Shown in pieces: positions 32,783 to 58,628 of a stretch of 64,000 nucleotides of DNA. Position 1 is the stretch's first letter. Each line of letters opens with the position of its first letter. A program made the position numbers and the translations under genes. The stretch comes from Desulfobacterales bacterium (GTDB lineage: Bacteria > Desulfobacterota > Desulfobacteria > Desulfobacterales > SpSt-501), in NCBI GenBank assembly GCA_041736435.1, contig JBGSTS010000282.1, positions 10,321-74,320 of the forward strand. Direction: 5' to 3'. Below the pieces are notes generated by a model. The model saw only the letters and a list, made by a program, of their open reading frames with translations, was not told where the DNA came from and did no database searches.

Positions 32783-33961
32783 CTAATTGCTGAAGCCGGG
32801 GTGCAGGTCTACGCGCCGGTTGAGGGCCCGCCCCTCCAGTGTATCATTTGTGGCGGCCGGGCGGGTCTCGCCGAATGCTACGGCCCGGAACCGCTCAGGT
32901 AAAATGCCCTGCTGGATGAAATAATCACCCACGGCCCTGGCCCTTGCTTCCGATAGCTTCTGATTGTATTCCGCTGCAGCCGTGCTGTCTGCGTGGCCAT
33001 GGATCTCCACCCTGAGCGCGGGATTGGCCTTCATGACGGCCACCGCCTCATCCAGGCTGCCGGTGTTCTTGATGACTGCCAGGTTGCTGTCGAAATAAAG
33101 GCCGCTCAATTCCCAGCAACCGTCGGCATTGACCCTTGCGCCGTTGGGCGTCTTCGGGCACTTGTCGCGGTTGTCGGGAACCCCGTCGCCGTCAGAATCC
33201 GGCACGCCTTCAGCCGGCCTCGCCGCAAGAGGGCTATCGGCCGTCTCGAGGAAAATTTCTTTCACGTAGCGCGCCATATCATCCGGCGTGCTGATGTCAT
33301 CGGCGTTGACGGCAAACCCGCATCCGCTGATATTGACAATCTGGTCCATTACCCTGCGAGCGTCGTGATCCCGGTTCATTAAAATCGGGTAGACGCACAA
33401 CCGGTCGCCGAGTGTTCCGCTCAGTTTCTGCACGGTTCTATACGCCCGGCCATGCAGAATGTTCTCGGAGTCGGAGACAACAATCAAGGCGATCCGGCCG
33501 GGGTTCCCCTGCTGGATGTAGCGGCTGGCAGCGTTGCCGCCGCCTAATGCAACAAGGCGCTTGGCTTCTTCCGGGGTTGAATAGCTGGCCAAGCCGGCGG
33601 CAAACTCGTCGCGATGATACGGCGCCGGCCCATAGAGCACCAGCGCGTCCTCGCAACTCATGCAGCTGCCCGCGTCGAAGGCCAAAAGCCCCGCCCGATA
33701 CGCCAGCGGCGGAATCATTCGGTTCATGCGAGCAACGGTCTCTTGCGCCCGGTCCGCTTCAAGACGTTTCCGGTAGGTGGTCTCCATCGAAGAGGCCGTG
33801 TCCAACACCACAATGAACGTATCAACCTTCTTGGAATACATCTCAGGACCCGGCTGCACCGGCGTGAAGGATTCCGGCGGGAACTTGTGTTTAGCAGCGC
33901 AGCCCGCCAGCGAACCGACCAAAACCAATGCCAGCACGACGATACGAAAATAGGTGTTCAT
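32783..33961 (-). CDS. OmpA-family lipoprotein with vWA-like N-domain and thrombospondin type-3 repeat
   Basis: Lipobox LAGCAA. DSDGDGVPDNRDKCP (TSP3 repeat). The C-terminal OmpA-like domain reads HGHADSTAAAEYNQKLSEARARAV...NRRVDL. Confidence 0.85.
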   Translation of the reverse strand: MNTYFRIVVLALVLVGSLAGCAAKHKFPPESFTPVQPGPEMYSKKVDTFIVVLDTASSMETTYRKRLEADRAQETVARMNRMIPPLAYRAGLLAFDAGSCMSCEDALVLYGPAPYHRDEFAAGLASYSTPEEAKRLVALGGGNAASRYIQQGNPGRIALIVVSDSENILHGRAYRTVQKLSGTLGDRLCVYPILMNRDHDARRVMDQIVNISGCGFAVNADDISTPDDMARYVKEIFLETADSPLAARPAEGVPDSDGDGVPDNRDKCPKTPNGARVNADGCWELSGLYFDSNLAVIKNTGSLDEAVAVMKANPALRVEIHGHADSTAAAEYNQKLSEARARAVGDYFIQQGILPERFRAVAFGETRPAATNDTLEGRALNRRVDLHPGFSN

Positions 33962-33991
33962 TTTTCCGACCTTTCTTTTTCATCCAGTGGT

Positions 33992-34750
33992 TCAAACCGA
34001 CCGCATGATCAGCAACTCGTTGCAGATGAGCCCGTCGACACCTAAGGCGAGCAGTTCTTCGGCCTCCTTGCGGGTGTTGATGGTCCATGGAAAAACTTTC
34101 AGACCGGCAGCGTGCAGCTGCTCCAACTGGCCGCGGTCGAGGGACGTGAAGCGCGGATGATAGGAGAACGCTTTGATCGCCAGCAAAAAATCGAGAACGC
34201 CCGAATCCAGCGGGTGCTCCGAGATGAAGGCCAGCGGGGGCGGGGCCTCGATGGCGGCGATGCGCTTTAAGATGCGCGGGTCGAAGCTCGAAACGATGAC
34301 CCGGTCCATGGCGCCGGTGGCTTCTACAAGTGCTGCTACCTGGCGTTCGATGGCGTCCGCTGGATAGTCCGCATCGAAGGCGCTGGTCTTGATCTCGATG
34401 TTCACCCGGCAGCGGCCTGCTGTCAGCGCCGTCACCTCGGAGAGCTCCGGCACCCGCTGCCCCGCGAAGCGGTCGTCGAACCAGCTGCCGGCGTCGAGCC
34501 GCTTGATCTCATCCAGCGTGTGATCCCGCACAAGACCCCTGCCGTTCGTGGTGCGGTCGAGGGTGTCGTCGTGGATCACGACGACCCTGCGGTCTTTCGT
34601 CAGGGTGACATCCAGCTCGATCATGTCGCAGCCGGACTGAATGGCCCCTTCGAAGGCGGCGAGAGTGTTTTCGGGAAACCGGGCCGGGTAGCCGCGGTGG
34701 CCGATGAGAAGCGGGTGGTCGAAGCGACTCAGATCGATTGCAGGGGGCAT
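33992..34750 (-). CDS. ugpQ: cytoplasmic glycerophosphodiester phosphodiesterase
   Basis: IGHRGYPARFPENTLAAF...ELDVTLTKD (GDPD motifs). It is the last gene of a ugpBAECQ-ordered cluster. Confidence 0.85.
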   Translation of the reverse strand: MPPAIDLSRFDHPLLIGHRGYPARFPENTLAAFEGAIQSGCDMIELDVTLTKDRRVVVIHDDTLDRTTNGRGLVRDHTLDEIKRLDAGSWFDDRFAGQRVPELSEVTALTAGRCRVNIEIKTSAFDADYPADAIERQVAALVEATGAMDRVIVSSFDPRILKRIAAIEAPPPLAFISEHPLDSGVLDFLLAIKAFSYHPRFTSLDRGQLEQLHAAGLKVFPWTINTRKEAEELLALGVDGLICNELLIMRSV

Positions 34751-55051: not shown

Positions 55052-55170
55052 GAGTGTCGCTCCATAGAGGATGTGGGTTTGAAATTACATTACTTTCGTC
55101 TTTGTTGGTTTCAAGGTAATTCCGGACGGAAGATTGTAAAGCCGATGCGACTCGGTATATAGGTAGAGCC

Positions 55171-56376
55171 ATGGGAACCCTGCTGCGTTATGTGGTTACA
55201 AGTCTGTTGATCTGCGCGTCTCTCGGCTGCGGGAGATCCGTTCCCGGGGTCCCGATCGACCCGGTGCCCGCGAATGTGCCCGAGGGCTACCGCCCGCTTT
55301 ACCGGGAGCTGGAGTTTGAACTCTCGCTCCTGAACCCTGTCTTCAATACCCTCGCAAGCCGCAAGACCGAAGCGACCATTTTCGGAGTCGAACTGCCCGC
55401 AGCTTCCGTACACCGGGTCCAACGCCTGCCCGACGATGACCAGCTCACATCGGCAGCCCTGACCCTGGACCGGTTGCAAACGCTCGGCGTCAGAATCATC
55501 TGCCTGAACGTCCTCTATCCCGTTCTGACGCAGGATTTTCCCCAGACCCCCTTGTACCGCAATTTTTACCGCAGCATCGGTGGCGAAATCCGCCGGCGGG
55601 GGTTTCTGCTGGTGGTCACCATGGGGGTCATGCCCCGCGAGCCGGAGTTGAGCCCGCTGCCTGCGGGCGCTGCCGGGCTGGACCGCACCCGCTTCAACTC
55701 CGGCTTGAGAGAAATGGCCGAAACCATCCTCACGGACCTGCAGCCGGACTACCTGACCATACTCTCCGAGCCGGACACGGTCGCTCAAAACGCTGGGCTG
55801 CCCTTCTCCCCCAAGGAGTTCGCCGCGACCATACAGCACGTGGTCCAGGGGCTCGACGCGGGCACTGTGAAATTGGGTGCCGGGACCGGCACCTGGGCCG
55901 CCTCGGAGTACCTCAAGGCCCTGGGGGCCATATCCGAGCTGCACTACCTCGACCTGCACATCCATCCGGTTCGCTATGGTTTCACTTCCGATCGGGTCAC
56001 CCAGGCGGCTGAGGTCGCCCGGAGCCGCGGCAAAAAAATTTCGATCGGCGCCGCCTGGCTGCAAAAGGAGTCCAGGCGTGAGTTTGGACAGCTGAGCCGC
56101 CCGGAGTCCCTTGCGCGGGAGGTGTTCTCTTTCTGGCATCCGCTCGACCGGCGCTTCGTGGAAATGGTGGTGGGGATCGCGCACAGCCTCAAGGCGGAGT
56201 TTTGCGTCTTCTCCCGGACCGAATATCTCTTCGCCGCCATTGAATATTCAGAGGAATCGGGCCGCCTGCCGCCGACCCAACTCCTGCAGATGATCGACGC
56301 CCAGGCGGCCGCCCGCAGTGCCGCCGGAAGGCTCACCCCCGCCGGCGAGAGGTTCAAGGATCTGACGGCCGACTGA
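55171..56376 (+). CDS. hypothetical lipoprotein (possibly TIM-barrel glycosidase-like)
   Basis: Lipobox LICASLGCG. LTILSEPD faintly recalls the GH5 NEP motif. No firm family assignment. The antisense 357-aa ORF looks like a GC-shadow. Confidence 0.55.
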   Translation: MGTLLRYVVTSLLICASLGCGRSVPGVPIDPVPANVPEGYRPLYRELEFELSLLNPVFNTLASRKTEATIFGVELPAASVHRVQRLPDDDQLTSAALTLDRLQTLGVRIICLNVLYPVLTQDFPQTPLYRNFYRSIGGEIRRRGFLLVVTMGVMPREPELSPLPAGAAGLDRTRFNSGLREMAETILTDLQPDYLTILSEPDTVAQNAGLPFSPKEFAATIQHVVQGLDAGTVKLGAGTGTWAASEYLKALGAISELHYLDLHIHPVRYGFTSDRVTQAAEVARSRGKKISIGAAWLQKESRREFGQLSRPESLAREVFSFWHPLDRRFVEMVVGIAHSLKAEFCVFSRTEYLFAAIEYSEESGRLPPTQLLQMIDAQAAARSAAGRLTPAGERFKDLTAD

Positions 56377-56461
56377 GCTTCGGAATTCCTTCTTGACAGC
56401 GGCGCGCAAACACCGTAAGAGCACGACCTATATTCTACAACATCTCAATTTGTTTGAGCTT

Positions 56462-56515
56462 ATGGGACGCTTCTCTCGCTTTTGGTGGTTTAGAAGCGTC
56501 CATCCGGGTCGGTAG
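56462..56515 (+). CDS. candidate Phe/Trp-rich leader peptide MGRFSRFWWFRSVHPGR
   Basis: Hand-read 17-codon ORF plus TAG. 5 of its 17 residues are Phe or Trp, in a FWWF run. It is followed by alternative helices and a terminator, upstream of an aromatic-amino-acid biosynthesis gene. The SD is weak (GAG). Confidence 0.55.
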   Translation: MGRFSRFWWFRSVHPGR

Positions 56516-56578
56516 CAACCCCCCTGCAACCATCACCCCGGATGGACCGGAATCGGTCTGTTCGGGGTCAGGTCTATG

Positions 56579-56615
56579 AGGCCCCGAGACGAAATGCTCG
56601 GGGCCTTTGCTTTGG
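56579..56615 (+). terminator. attenuator terminator in the aro/phe leader
   Basis: AGGCCCCGAG (56579-88), loop ACGAAATG, CTCGGGGCCT (56597-606), then TTGCTTTGG. It lies 150 nt upstream of the structural gene's ATG. Confidence 0.65.
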
Positions 56616-56756
56616 TGGCACCGGCAACATCACCCGACACCGCACGGTTGGAGGCGTCAGGGGGTGGCCGGGACGAACTGGTTGCGGAGGGGACCGGCTC
56701 AGTGGCCCGACGGACGGATGAAGGCTCAGGATGTCCCGCATAAGAAGGAGAAAGTC

Positions 56757-58628
56757 ATGATCGTTGAACTGGAGAAGGAACTGGCACCGGAAGCCAAAAT
56801 CGACCTGGTTTTGAAGTTGAAGGCCTCCCGCTGCGATTGTAGGGACCTGCCGGCGACGGACTGCGAGCGGATCGGGATTTTAGGCAAGCCCGGCTGCAGC
56901 AGCGAGGAGATCGGCCGCATCCCCGGCGTGGCGCGCGTAATCCGAGTGAAAACCCCCTACAAGCTGGTCGGCCGCGAGATGCACCCCCAGGACACCTGCG
57001 TACGCGTGGGGGACGTGGTGGTCGGCGGTGAGAACATCTCGGTCATCGCCGGCCCCTGCGCCGTCGAGAGTCTGGAACAGGCGCTGACGATCGCGCGCGA
57101 GGTCCAGCGCGCCGGGGCCTCCCTGTTTCGCGGCGGTGCCTTCAAACCGCGCACCTCCCCTTACTCCTTCCAGGGACTGGAGGAACAGGGCTTGCGAATC
57201 CTGGCCGAGGTGCGTGAAACCCTGGGCATCGGGGTAGTGACCGAGATGACCTCCCCGTCCCAGGCCGACCTGATGATGAAGTACATCGACGTGGTCCAGG
57301 TCGGCGCCCGCAATATGCAGAACTTCGAACTGCTCAAGTGCGTGGGGCGCATGGGCAAGCCGGTCCTGCTTAAACGCGGCCTGGCGGGAACTCTCGAGGA
57401 GTGGCTCATGTCCGCCGAGTACATCCTCGCCGAGGGCAACTGCCAGGTCATCCTCTGCGAACGCGGCATCCGGACCTTCGAGCCTTACACGCGCAATACC
57501 CTGGACCTGTCCGCCATCCCGGTCCTCAAAAAGCTCACCCACCTGCCCATCGTCGTCGACCCGAGCCACGCCACCGGCATGCGTGAGAAGGTCAGCCCCA
57601 TGGCGCGCTCCGCCGTGGCCGCCGGTGCGGACGGCCTCATGATCGAGGTGCACCACGACCCGGATCACGCCATGTCCGACGGCGCCCAGAGCCTCTACCC
57701 CCACCAGTTCCGGCAGCTCATGCGGGACATCTACGTCATCGCGCCGGTCGTCGGCAAGCAGCTGGACTTTTCGCACCTGGAGCGCATTAGGGTGATCGGC
57801 CGCAAACGCAAAAGCGGGGGCACACGCCAGCGTGCCGGGTTTATGGGTCGGATCGGCACCTTCAGCCACAAAGCCTGCCTGCAGTATTTCGGGGAAGCCG
57901 CCGATGCCGTGCCGCTGCCGACCTTTCAATCCATCTTCGAGGCGGTCAAGGCGGATGGCATCGACTATGGGATCGTCCCCCTGGAGAACTCGCTTTCCGG
58001 AAGCATCCATGAAAACTACGACCTGCTGCGCGATTACGACCTGCGTATCATCGGTGAGGTGCAGATCCGCATCACCCAGAACCTGCTGGCCAAACCCGGC
58101 ACAGAGCTGCCCCAGATCCGGCGGGTGCTCTCTCATCCTCAGGGCATCGAGCAGTGCCGCCAGTTCCTATCCCAGCATAATTGGGAGCTCGTCTCCGTGA
58201 GCGACACGGCCGGGGCCGCCGAGCGGGTCGGCCGGGCAACGGGCAACGGGGACGCTGCCATCGCCGGCCTGATCACAGCCGAGATCTACGGCCTGGCGGT
58301 CATCGCGGAGGGCATCGAAACCAACCCGCGCAACTACACGCGCTTCGTCGTCATCGGCAAAGCTCCGATCGAAGCCCGCAAGGCCACCAAGACCTCGCTC
58401 ATCCTCTCGGCCAAAAACGAGCCGGGCGCTCTATTTTCAATTCTTCAGGTGTTTGCCGAACAGAAGATCAACATGACCAAGCTCGAGTCCCGCCCCATCC
58501 CTGGAGAACCCTGGCGCTATAATTTTTACATCGACATCGAGGCGGACCTCGAGTCTGAAGCGCTCGCCGAGGTGCAGGCGGCGCTGACGGAAAAGAGCGA
58601 CTACCTGAAAATTTTAGGCTGCTACTGA
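56757..58628 (+). CDS. fusion protein: type I-beta DAHP synthase (with N-terminal ferredoxin-like regulatory domain) + prephenate dehydratase with ACT domain
   Basis: ATG 56757 follows AAGGAG. The DAHPS part has VIAGPCAVES, GAFKPRTSPYSFQG and VDPSHATG. The PDT part has LENSLSGSI, NYTRFVVIG and TKLESRPI. It is one uninterrupted frame. Confidence 0.85.
   Translation: MIVELEKELAPEAKIDLVLKLKASRCDCRDLPATDCERIGILGKPGCSSEEIGRIPGVARVIRVKTPYKLVGREMHPQDTCVRVGDVVVGGENISVIAGPCAVESLEQALTIAREVQRAGASLFRGGAFKPRTSPYSFQGLEEQGLRILAEVRETLGIGVVTEMTSPSQADLMMKYIDVVQVGARNMQNFELLKCVGRMGKPVLLKRGLAGTLEEWLMSAEYILAEGNCQVILCERGIRTFEPYTRNTLDLSAIPVLKKLTHLPIVVDPSHATGMREKVSPMARSAVAAGADGLMIEVHHDPDHAMSDGAQSLYPHQFRQLMRDIYVIAPVVGKQLDFSHLERIRVIGRKRKSGGTRQRAGFMGRIGTFSHKACLQYFGEAADAVPLPTFQSIFEAVKADGIDYGIVPLENSLSGSIHENYDLLRDYDLRIIGEVQIRITQNLLAKPGTELPQIRRVLSHPQGIEQCRQFLSQHNWELVSVSDTAGAAERVGRATGNGDAAIAGLITAEIYGLAVIAEGIETNPRNYTRFVVIGKAPIEARKATKTSLILSAKNEPGALFSILQVFAEQKINMTKLESRPIPGEPWRYNFYIDIEADLESEALAEVQAALTEKSDYLKILGCY

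Follow-up and report, generated by a model that had tools for sequence, protein, structure and literature searches.

In the pheL-pheA system of Escherichia coli and other Gammaproteobacteria, a leader peptide with phenylalanine (Phe) codons and a set of alternative hairpins leading to an intrinsic terminator precede a prephenate dehydratase gene, and stalling of the ribosome is the signal of amino acid shortage. The hisL leader of Salmonella and E. coli holds its regulatory codons in the first hairpin of a six-segment RNA that pairs either as A:B, C:D, and E:F or as B:C and D:E, and leaders such as thrL (threonine and isoleucine) and ilvL/ivbL (leucine, valine, and isoleucine) exert multivalent attenuation of branched pathways. 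Here, we analyzed a 64,000-nucleotide (nt) stretch of DNA, referred to below as the window, from an uncultured Desulfobacterales bacterium (GCA_041736435.1, contig JBGSTS010000282.1), in which a short open reading frame (ORF) with Phe and tryptophan (Trp) codons and a chain of alternative helices lie upstream of an aroF-pheA fusion gene for 3-deoxy-D-arabino-heptulosonate 7-phosphate (DAHP) synthase and prephenate dehydratase. Comparative analysis suggests, with a probability of roughly 85%, that this element is a ribosome-mediated (leader-peptide) transcription attenuator of the fusion gene.

Leader-peptide attenuation of amino acid operons is a textbook mechanism, described chiefly from Gamma- and Alphaproteobacteria and Actinobacteria and from a small number of Firmicutes (PMC2965389, PMC3766115, PMC3082878), and the 53 pheL genes reported are all from the gamma subdivision (PMC3082878). 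The closest published analogue of the leader in the window, likewise upstream of a DAHP synthase gene, is uORFC-13-1 (Brewer et al. 2021, PMC8632094), an upstream ORF (uORF) candidate of Acholeplasma in which a U-run encoding Phe is immediately followed by an intrinsic terminator, upstream of aroF. Its 24 representatives come only from Acholeplasma and environmental sequences (PMC8632094).

Results

The leader ORF occupies positions 56462 to 56515 on the plus strand and, as an earlier note on this DNA had it, can be read directly from the sequence: an ATG (56462 to 56464) is followed by codons for GRFSR, FWWF, and RSVHPGR and by a TAG (56513 to 56515), so that 17 sense codons, 3 of them for Phe and 2 for Trp, precede the stop. 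The peptide is MGRFSRFWWFRSVHPGR. Its regulatory codons, F7, W8, W9, and F10, lie at 56480 to 56491 in the loop of the first helix, with an additional Phe codon, F4, at 56471 to 56473, and 35 of 36 distinct relatives retain the ORF in the same frame and with its stop in the same position.

Six segments of the plus strand can pair into five helices, a to e, all of which are present where they had previously been paired by hand, some of them longer than recorded then. Segment 1 (56465 to 56474; codons G-R-F-S) is the 5′ strand of helix a and pairs with 56492 to 56501 over 10 base pairs (bp), where 9 had been noted (−14.1 kcal/mol). Segment 2 (56492 to 56508; codons R-S-V-H-P-G) combines the 3′ strand of a with the 5′ strand of b (56498 to 56508), which pairs with 56537 to 56547 through 11 Watson-Crick bp, the inner 9 of which had been seen (−19.2 kcal/mol). 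Segment 3 (56535 to 56549) contains the 3′ strand of b and is the 5′ strand of c, paired with 56554 to 56568 over 15 bp including 3 G-U, beyond the outer 8 of the first description (−24.5 kcal/mol). Segment 4 (56554 to 56569) joins the 3′ strand of c to the 5′ strand of d (56561 to 56569), which pairs with 56580 to 56588 over the same 9 bp, 2 of them G-U, that had been given before (−13.8 kcal/mol). Finally, segment 5 (56578 to 56588) contains the 3′ strand of d and is the 5′ strand of the terminator hairpin e, which pairs with 56597 to 56607 over 11 bp (−22.2 kcal/mol), and segment 6 (56597 to 56615) consists of the 3′ strand of e and the U-tract UUUGCUUUGG. Folding of 56440 to 56640 with RNAfold gave −94.3 kcal/mol compared to a shuffle mean of −68.0 (z = −5.9; 0 of 200 shuffles as stable), and the minimum-energy structure contains a, c, and e.

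Related loci were obtained from one genome scan by protein alignment and one metagenome scan, and the counts given here cover the matches listed; those of the genome scan were mostly distant DAHP synthases, and its useful loci were L001 to L004. The element lies directly upstream of the orthologous fusion gene in 43 of the 44 loci at which the fusion protein is 56 to 91% identical, which derive from metagenome-assembled genomes (MAGs) of Desulfobacterales and Syntrophobacteraceae and from metagenomes. The mini-ORF, first noticed in the window alone, is thus conserved at about 40 such loci. It encodes GRFF, a variable stretch drawn from F, W, C, Y, and other residues, and then FRSVHP, so that the aromatic run stands just before an ending of FRSVHP, 1 to 3 codons, and a stop. 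Every locus in this range of identity with enough upstream sequence carries it, except L099.

In L099 (2080 to 2503), the promoter and the entire leader are missing, and AATAATCCTT runs straight into CGGTGAAAGGAAAAATGAGAAATG; between the same two points, promoter, leader, and spacer take up about 320 nt in its close relatives L097, L098, and L119. This looks like a natural deletion of the element as one unit, after which the fusion gene would escape attenuation and be transcribed from the upstream gene.

A covariance model (R1) built from the 36 distinct leaders recovered one copy in the window (56456 to 56616, 116 bits) and, in each of 43 loci, a single copy directly upstream of the gene; L001, which was outside the training set, is among these, as is L124 with a truncated copy. 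In 76 distant loci among the matches listed, which belong to Acidobacteriota, Spirochaetes, Firmicutes, and other phyla and encode DAHP synthases or fusions, the model found no copy, and the aromatic mini-ORF is absent before distant fusion genes (44 to 48% identity) of Spirochaetes, Firmicutes, Terriglobia, Anaerolineae, and Thermotogae. The family therefore ends at the Desulfobacterota-type clade, being lineage-specific and tied to this gene.

Pairing was evaluated in an alignment of 36 sequences (A2), with slid helices and shuffles as controls. For the helices of the terminating conformation (a + c + e), 96.6% of alignment cells are paired and 14 pairs have changed on both sides, with slid controls reaching at most 57% and none of 500 shuffles matching the observed values. 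For the read-through conformation (b + d), the corresponding figures are 92.2% and 6 pairs, with slid controls at most 63%. Both of the alternative helix sets proposed from the window alone thus keep their pairing through compensatory changes. Taken singly, helix a is 98.5% paired, with compensatory changes at two pairs that alter the peptide (RSV to GIV and RSV to RNV); b is 93.2% paired (3 compensatory pairs), c 95.5% (6), d 91.0% (3), and e 96.5% (6). RNAalifold, run unguided, recovers a, c, and e. Furthermore, a triple covariation from C-G-C to U-A-U in four sequences (L105, L106, L111, and L122) changes segment 2 from CATCCGG to CATTCGG, segment 3 from CCGGATG to CCGAATG, and segment 4 from GTCCGG to ATTCGG, leaving b and c both intact.

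The relatives also bear out hairpin e as a terminator: 35 of 36 sequences have a U-rich tail there, with T at 5 or more of 8 nt, and a terminator scan calls the hairpin in L085 and L105. At the other end of the element, CTTGACA lies about 66 to 69 nt upstream of the leader ATG, at near-constant spacing, in almost all related loci. In the window, it provides a candidate −35 box (TTGACA, 56393 to 56398, plus strand), followed after 17 nt by a candidate −10 box (TAAGAG, 56416 to 56421, plus strand), whose counterparts in relatives (TAATGC, TAATAA, TAATAT, TAAATG, and TAAAGC) lie 17 to 18 nt from the −35 box. A promoter scan called TTGACA-18-TAATAT in L085 and did not call TTGACA-17-TAAGAG in the window, a site too weak for it. 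This conserved pair is the likely leader promoter, and it would place the start of transcription near 56428. The hexamer TATATT (56429 to 56434), for which a −10 role had been suggested, is unlikely to have it because 30 nt separate TATATT from the sole −35-like box; the conserved TTGACA-17-TAAnnn is favored instead, and under that promoter TATATT coincides with the start of transcription.

We propose that transcription from TTGACA-17-TAAGAG would produce a leader RNA encoding the 17-residue peptide, with its Phe and Trp codons in the loop of helix a. When charged transfer RNAs (tRNA-Phe and tRNA-Trp) are plentiful, the ribosome would reach the TAG at 56513 and its footprint would cover 56498 to 56508 of segment 2. 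Hairpin c would then form between 56535 to 56549 and 56554 to 56568, segment 5 would be left free for terminator e and its U-tract, and RNA polymerase would halt short of the gene. Under shortage of Phe or Trp, the ribosome would stall at codons 7 to 9, melt helix a, and leave segment 2 exposed, to pair with segment 3 (helix b) upon transcription of the latter; segment 4, freed by helix b, would pair with segment 5 (helix d), and segment 6, without a partner, would permit read-through into the gene. The decisive event would be whether or not a ribosome covers 56498 to 56508 at the stop codon.

The spacing of the signals fits this scheme. The TAG begins 5 nt past the end of segment 2, and codons 7 to 9 lie 7 to 18 nt upstream of that segment, a placement suited to masking by a terminating ribosome and exposure by a stalled one. 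Ribosome footprints are of generally known size; with the TAG in the A site, a ribosome would cover approximately 56498 to 56527, all of segment 2, and with W8 in the A site, it would cover approximately 56465 to 56497 and leave segment 2 free. We also folded the growing transcript step by step with the ribosome masked at W8 or at the stop codon. With masking at W8, helix b appears when the RNA reaches 56550, and b + d is the minimum-energy state at 56592; with masking at the stop codon, c is retained at every transcript length. Constrained folding, as proposed in the earlier note, thus backs the model at intermediate transcript lengths, but the full-length RNA always adopts the terminator.

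Several points weigh against this mechanism. Many of the 36 sequences are closely related, so that independent covariation events are fewer than the cell counts imply. As its Shine-Dalgarno sequence, the leader has a weak GAG 3 nt before the ATG, which varies among relatives, and a ribosome halted at F10 would mask part of segment 2. It had been claimed that each segment competes with its neighbors; b and d do share strands with c and e, but a and b overlap by only 4 nt, a weak competition that makes the untranslated default state ambiguous; at 56592, in the absence of a ribosome, the minimum-energy fold holds a, partial b, and d together. Furthermore, the full-length minimum-energy fold is c + e under all masking conditions. 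The switch must therefore be kinetic, as in classical attenuators, and in this modeling its operation would depend on a kinetic argument, with d persisting while the polymerase crosses the U-tract. Hairpin e in the window is also missed by a consensus terminator scan, because its U-tract is interrupted (6 T in 8 nt).

The weak Shine-Dalgarno sequence, together with equilibrium folding that at full length does not separate the ribosome positions, would suit an attenuator that senses a ligand or a protein (a riboswitch or a TRAP- or PyrR-like target), in which the relay is real and the mini-ORF is incidental rather than the thing sensed. The most conserved residues, GRF and RSVHP, are fully explained by pairing in a and b, as that alternative would have it: GRF and RSV are the two strands of helix a, and HPG is the 5′ strand of helix b, so these flanks are by-products of RNA pairing. 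Pairing of GGACGATTCC with GGAATCGTCC in L094 and L096 comes with GIV in place of RSV in the peptide, and pairing of GGACGTTTC with GGAACGTCC in L003 comes with RNV. We nevertheless consider sensing of a ligand or protein improbable, given how the remainder of the ORF varies. The aromatic run is the sole part of the peptide free of RNA constraint, and it stays aromatic; within the element as a whole, nothing but this F/W/Y run varies freely, the reverse of what a conserved ligand pocket would show. Across 35 of 36 sequences, the helix a loop measures 16, 19, 22, 25, or 28 nt, in steps of 3. Codons for F, W, or Y are enriched in the ORF frame only (186 of 394, or 47%, versus 56 of 393 and 46 of 358, or 13 to 14%, in the other frames), and synonymous TTT/TTC differences are common among relatives. 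An in-frame stop follows 1 to 3 codons past the HP codons in every case, just beyond segment 2, and the ATG is kept 2 to 3 codons before GRF in the close clade. The leader ORF thus appears to evolve as a translated sequence.

Database comparison also gave no sign of a ligand- or protein-binding leader. Rfam leader and attenuator models, which the earlier note had thought worth scanning, produced no match: the window holds no region that attains the gathering score of a leader, T-box (RF00230), riboswitch, or protein-binding leader family of Rfam 15, with Phe_leader, Trp_leader, His_leader, Leu_leader, Thr_leader, and Leu/phe_leader included. At E ≤ 10, positions 56350 to 56800 yielded only three spurious small RNA matches, far below threshold.

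One of the 36 leaders has a disrupted frame. In L121 (191 to 351), a 1-nt deletion in a T-run of the helix a loop (27 versus 28 nt) breaks the mini-ORF without disturbing any of the helices and reflects either a sequencing error in the homopolymer or a dead leader.

Marginally less probable again is a small stand-alone transcript whose RNA or aromatic-rich peptide acts in trans, as is reported for rnTrpL and peTrpL of Sinorhizobium, with control in cis being secondary. The conserved promoter and terminator do bound a unit of about 190 nt, and there is precedent for trans-acting attenuator products (PMC7298713, PMC7968998). Yet the element occurs only directly 5′ of the fusion gene and on the same strand, with no further copies detected by model R1 elsewhere in the window or in 146 loci. 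Moreover, the covariation of the alternative helices b and d is explained by a switch only, the flanks of the peptide follow the needs of RNA pairing, and a role in trans would supplement attenuation in cis, not replace it.

The possibility that a GC-rich intergenic region with a short ORF and palindromic CCGGGG/CCCCGG repeats yielded these pairings by chance, with e merely the terminator of the upstream gene for 401 amino acids (aa), gains something from the self-complementarity of CCGG-type cores, from which alternative pairings arise easily, and from a terminator scan of the window that found none between the stop of that gene (56376) and the leader, but we regard it as highly improbable and, on the comparative data, already refuted, given the fold z-score, the persistence of the element across loci of 34% to 62% GC with proteins down to 56% identity, the compensatory changes in both helix sets, the conserved promoter between the upstream gene and the leader, and the loss of the leader in L099 as if one unit, with the sequence resuming just before the ribosome-binding site.

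Within the leader-peptide attenuator favored here, the relatives differ in two respects. First, in 26 of 36 relatives, hairpin c is likewise trailed by U-rich sequence (at least 5 T in 8 nt; A2 columns 126 to 137), and in L105 (2361 to 2404), the terminator scan calls hairpin c, directly upstream of terminator e; the tail of c in the window (UCAGGUCU) is without a U-rich feature. In AT-rich relatives, a single leader peptide thus probably governs two successive terminators, of which the window would keep the second only. Second, the relatives have 4 to 7 consecutive aromatic codons, in runs that include FFFFWWF, FFCFWWF, FFCWWWF, FFWFWF, FFWFFWF, FSIFGWF, FLGFWRF, FFFYF, FFFSF, FFFFF, and FFIFF. 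Among the matches listed, Trp codons are restricted to the subclade of the window itself, with at least 80% protein identity, plus one in L094 and L096, and the more distant members have Phe only, with occasional tyrosine (Tyr). Dual sensing of Phe and Trp would fit an enzyme that performs the common first step and a Phe-specific step. We tentatively suggest, at somewhat less than even odds, that the five-helix relay gates two serial terminators and that the sensing codons were retuned within Desulfobacterales from Phe-only (FFFSF, FFFFF, FFFYF) to Phe and Trp (FWWF, CWWWF, FFWFWF), the window being a derived form that lost the first U-tract. If true, this would be a two-stage leader-peptide attenuator with sensing codons that evolve while the RNA switch stays fixed.

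The gene downstream of the leader (56757 to 58628, plus strand; ATG start, 623 aa) encodes a type I-beta DAHP synthase with an N-terminal regulatory domain, fused to prephenate dehydratase and an ACT domain. The protein matches NCBIfam models for DAHP synthase (NF006421, TIGR01361) and prephenate dehydratase (NF008865) and has thousands of relatives; it makes DAHP, the common aromatic precursor, and performs the Phe-specific prephenate dehydratase step. Its Shine-Dalgarno sequence, AAGGAG (56745 to 56750, plus strand), is kept in all orthologous loci. A GC-rich spacer on the plus strand (56616 to 56744) separates the terminator from this ribosome-binding site and exceeds that of the closest relatives by about 100 nt, with 241 nt from the leader stop to the gene ATG compared to 135 to 141 nt; unrelated long spacers occur at the same place in L002, L089, L092, L097-L098, and L104. 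A second regulatory element was sought at 56616 to 56756, and none was found; the spacer does not fold significantly (z = +1.27) and matches nothing in Rfam.

The plus-strand ORF that adjoins the leader upstream (401 aa, 55171 to 56376) has a lipoprotein-signal-like N terminus (...LLICASLGCG) and no match in NCBIfam or Pfam. Its C terminus (ERFKDL...) is also encoded just 5′ of the leader in the closest relatives, so that synteny extends to them. The 357-aa ORF that overlaps the 401-aa ORF on the other strand (55111 to 56184) is probably an artifact of high GC content. Elsewhere in the window, a regular-expression scan retrieved a Phe-rich mini-ORF at 33928 to 34008 on the plus strand (MPARRYENRCSFFRPFFFIQWFKPTA), which we rejected as a second attenuator and regard as a coincidence because it is the reverse complement of the intergenic and ribosome-binding junction between the minus-strand genes at 32783 to 33961 and 33992 to 34750. 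The name Desulfobacterales bacterium is carried by the nearest labeled relative of the neighboring Lon protease (93% identity) and by the nearest validly labeled relative of the fusion protein (76%). One relative of the fusion protein (P0011, 82%) and one relative of Lon protease (P0175, 81%) are both on a 16,561-bp NCBI MAG contig, presumably one and the same, labeled “Hyphomicrobiales bacterium.” All other labeled relatives are Desulfobacterales or Deltaproteobacteria, and the contig is probably mis-binned or mislabeled.

Discussion

The mini-ORF, both helix sets, the terminator tail, and the coding signals all pass comparative tests, consistent with a predicted attenuator at this locus. The comparison with classical pheL/trpL logic made in the earlier note stands for the logic of attenuation and falls short for the architecture, which, with six segments and a relay through b and d, is nearer that of hisL. 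Unlike pheL-pheA, which has four segments, the element in the window has six and forms five helices; it also mixes Trp with Phe codons, belongs to a Desulfobacterales host, shows no sequence or structure match to Rfam leader models, and joins prephenate dehydratase to DAHP synthase rather than to chorismate mutase. With hisL, it shares the six-segment relay, with three hairpins when terminating and two bridging hairpins at read-through, but it differs in the amino acids concerned, has no sequence relationship to it, and gives no match to Rfam His_leader. The U-tract of the middle hairpin c in 26 of 36 relatives, suggestive of serial terminators, is not a hisL feature.

Like thrL and ilvL/ivbL, the leader in the window mixes codons for several end products, although here these are Phe and Trp, with occasional Tyr in relatives, and Trp is confined to one subclade. 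From uORFC-13-1, compared here by its description only, it differs in consensus (that candidate shows one or more Phe codons and a single additional stem) and in taxon, and the likeness of the two is probably convergence; if Rfam 15 includes that motif, the scans of the window gave no match to it.

In the literature covered, we found no prior description of the element or its peptide motif in Deltaproteobacteria or Desulfobacterota; Lopatovskaya et al. 2010, outside that set, may mention attenuators in Deltaproteobacteria. An uncatalogued attenuator family in Desulfobacterota, with about 40 instances among the matches listed and covariation for both conformations, is well supported by the comparison of sequences. 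The family merits documenting, although it leaves the general understanding of attenuation unchanged. The 36-leader alignment and covariance model constitute a ready seed for an Rfam-type family and allow the conserved “hypothetical” intergenic region that precedes aroF-pheA in many MAGs to be annotated. For the biology of these not-yet-grown, sulfate-reducer-type organisms, the element indicates that the fused enzyme may be under the control of Phe and, in one clade, also of Trp.

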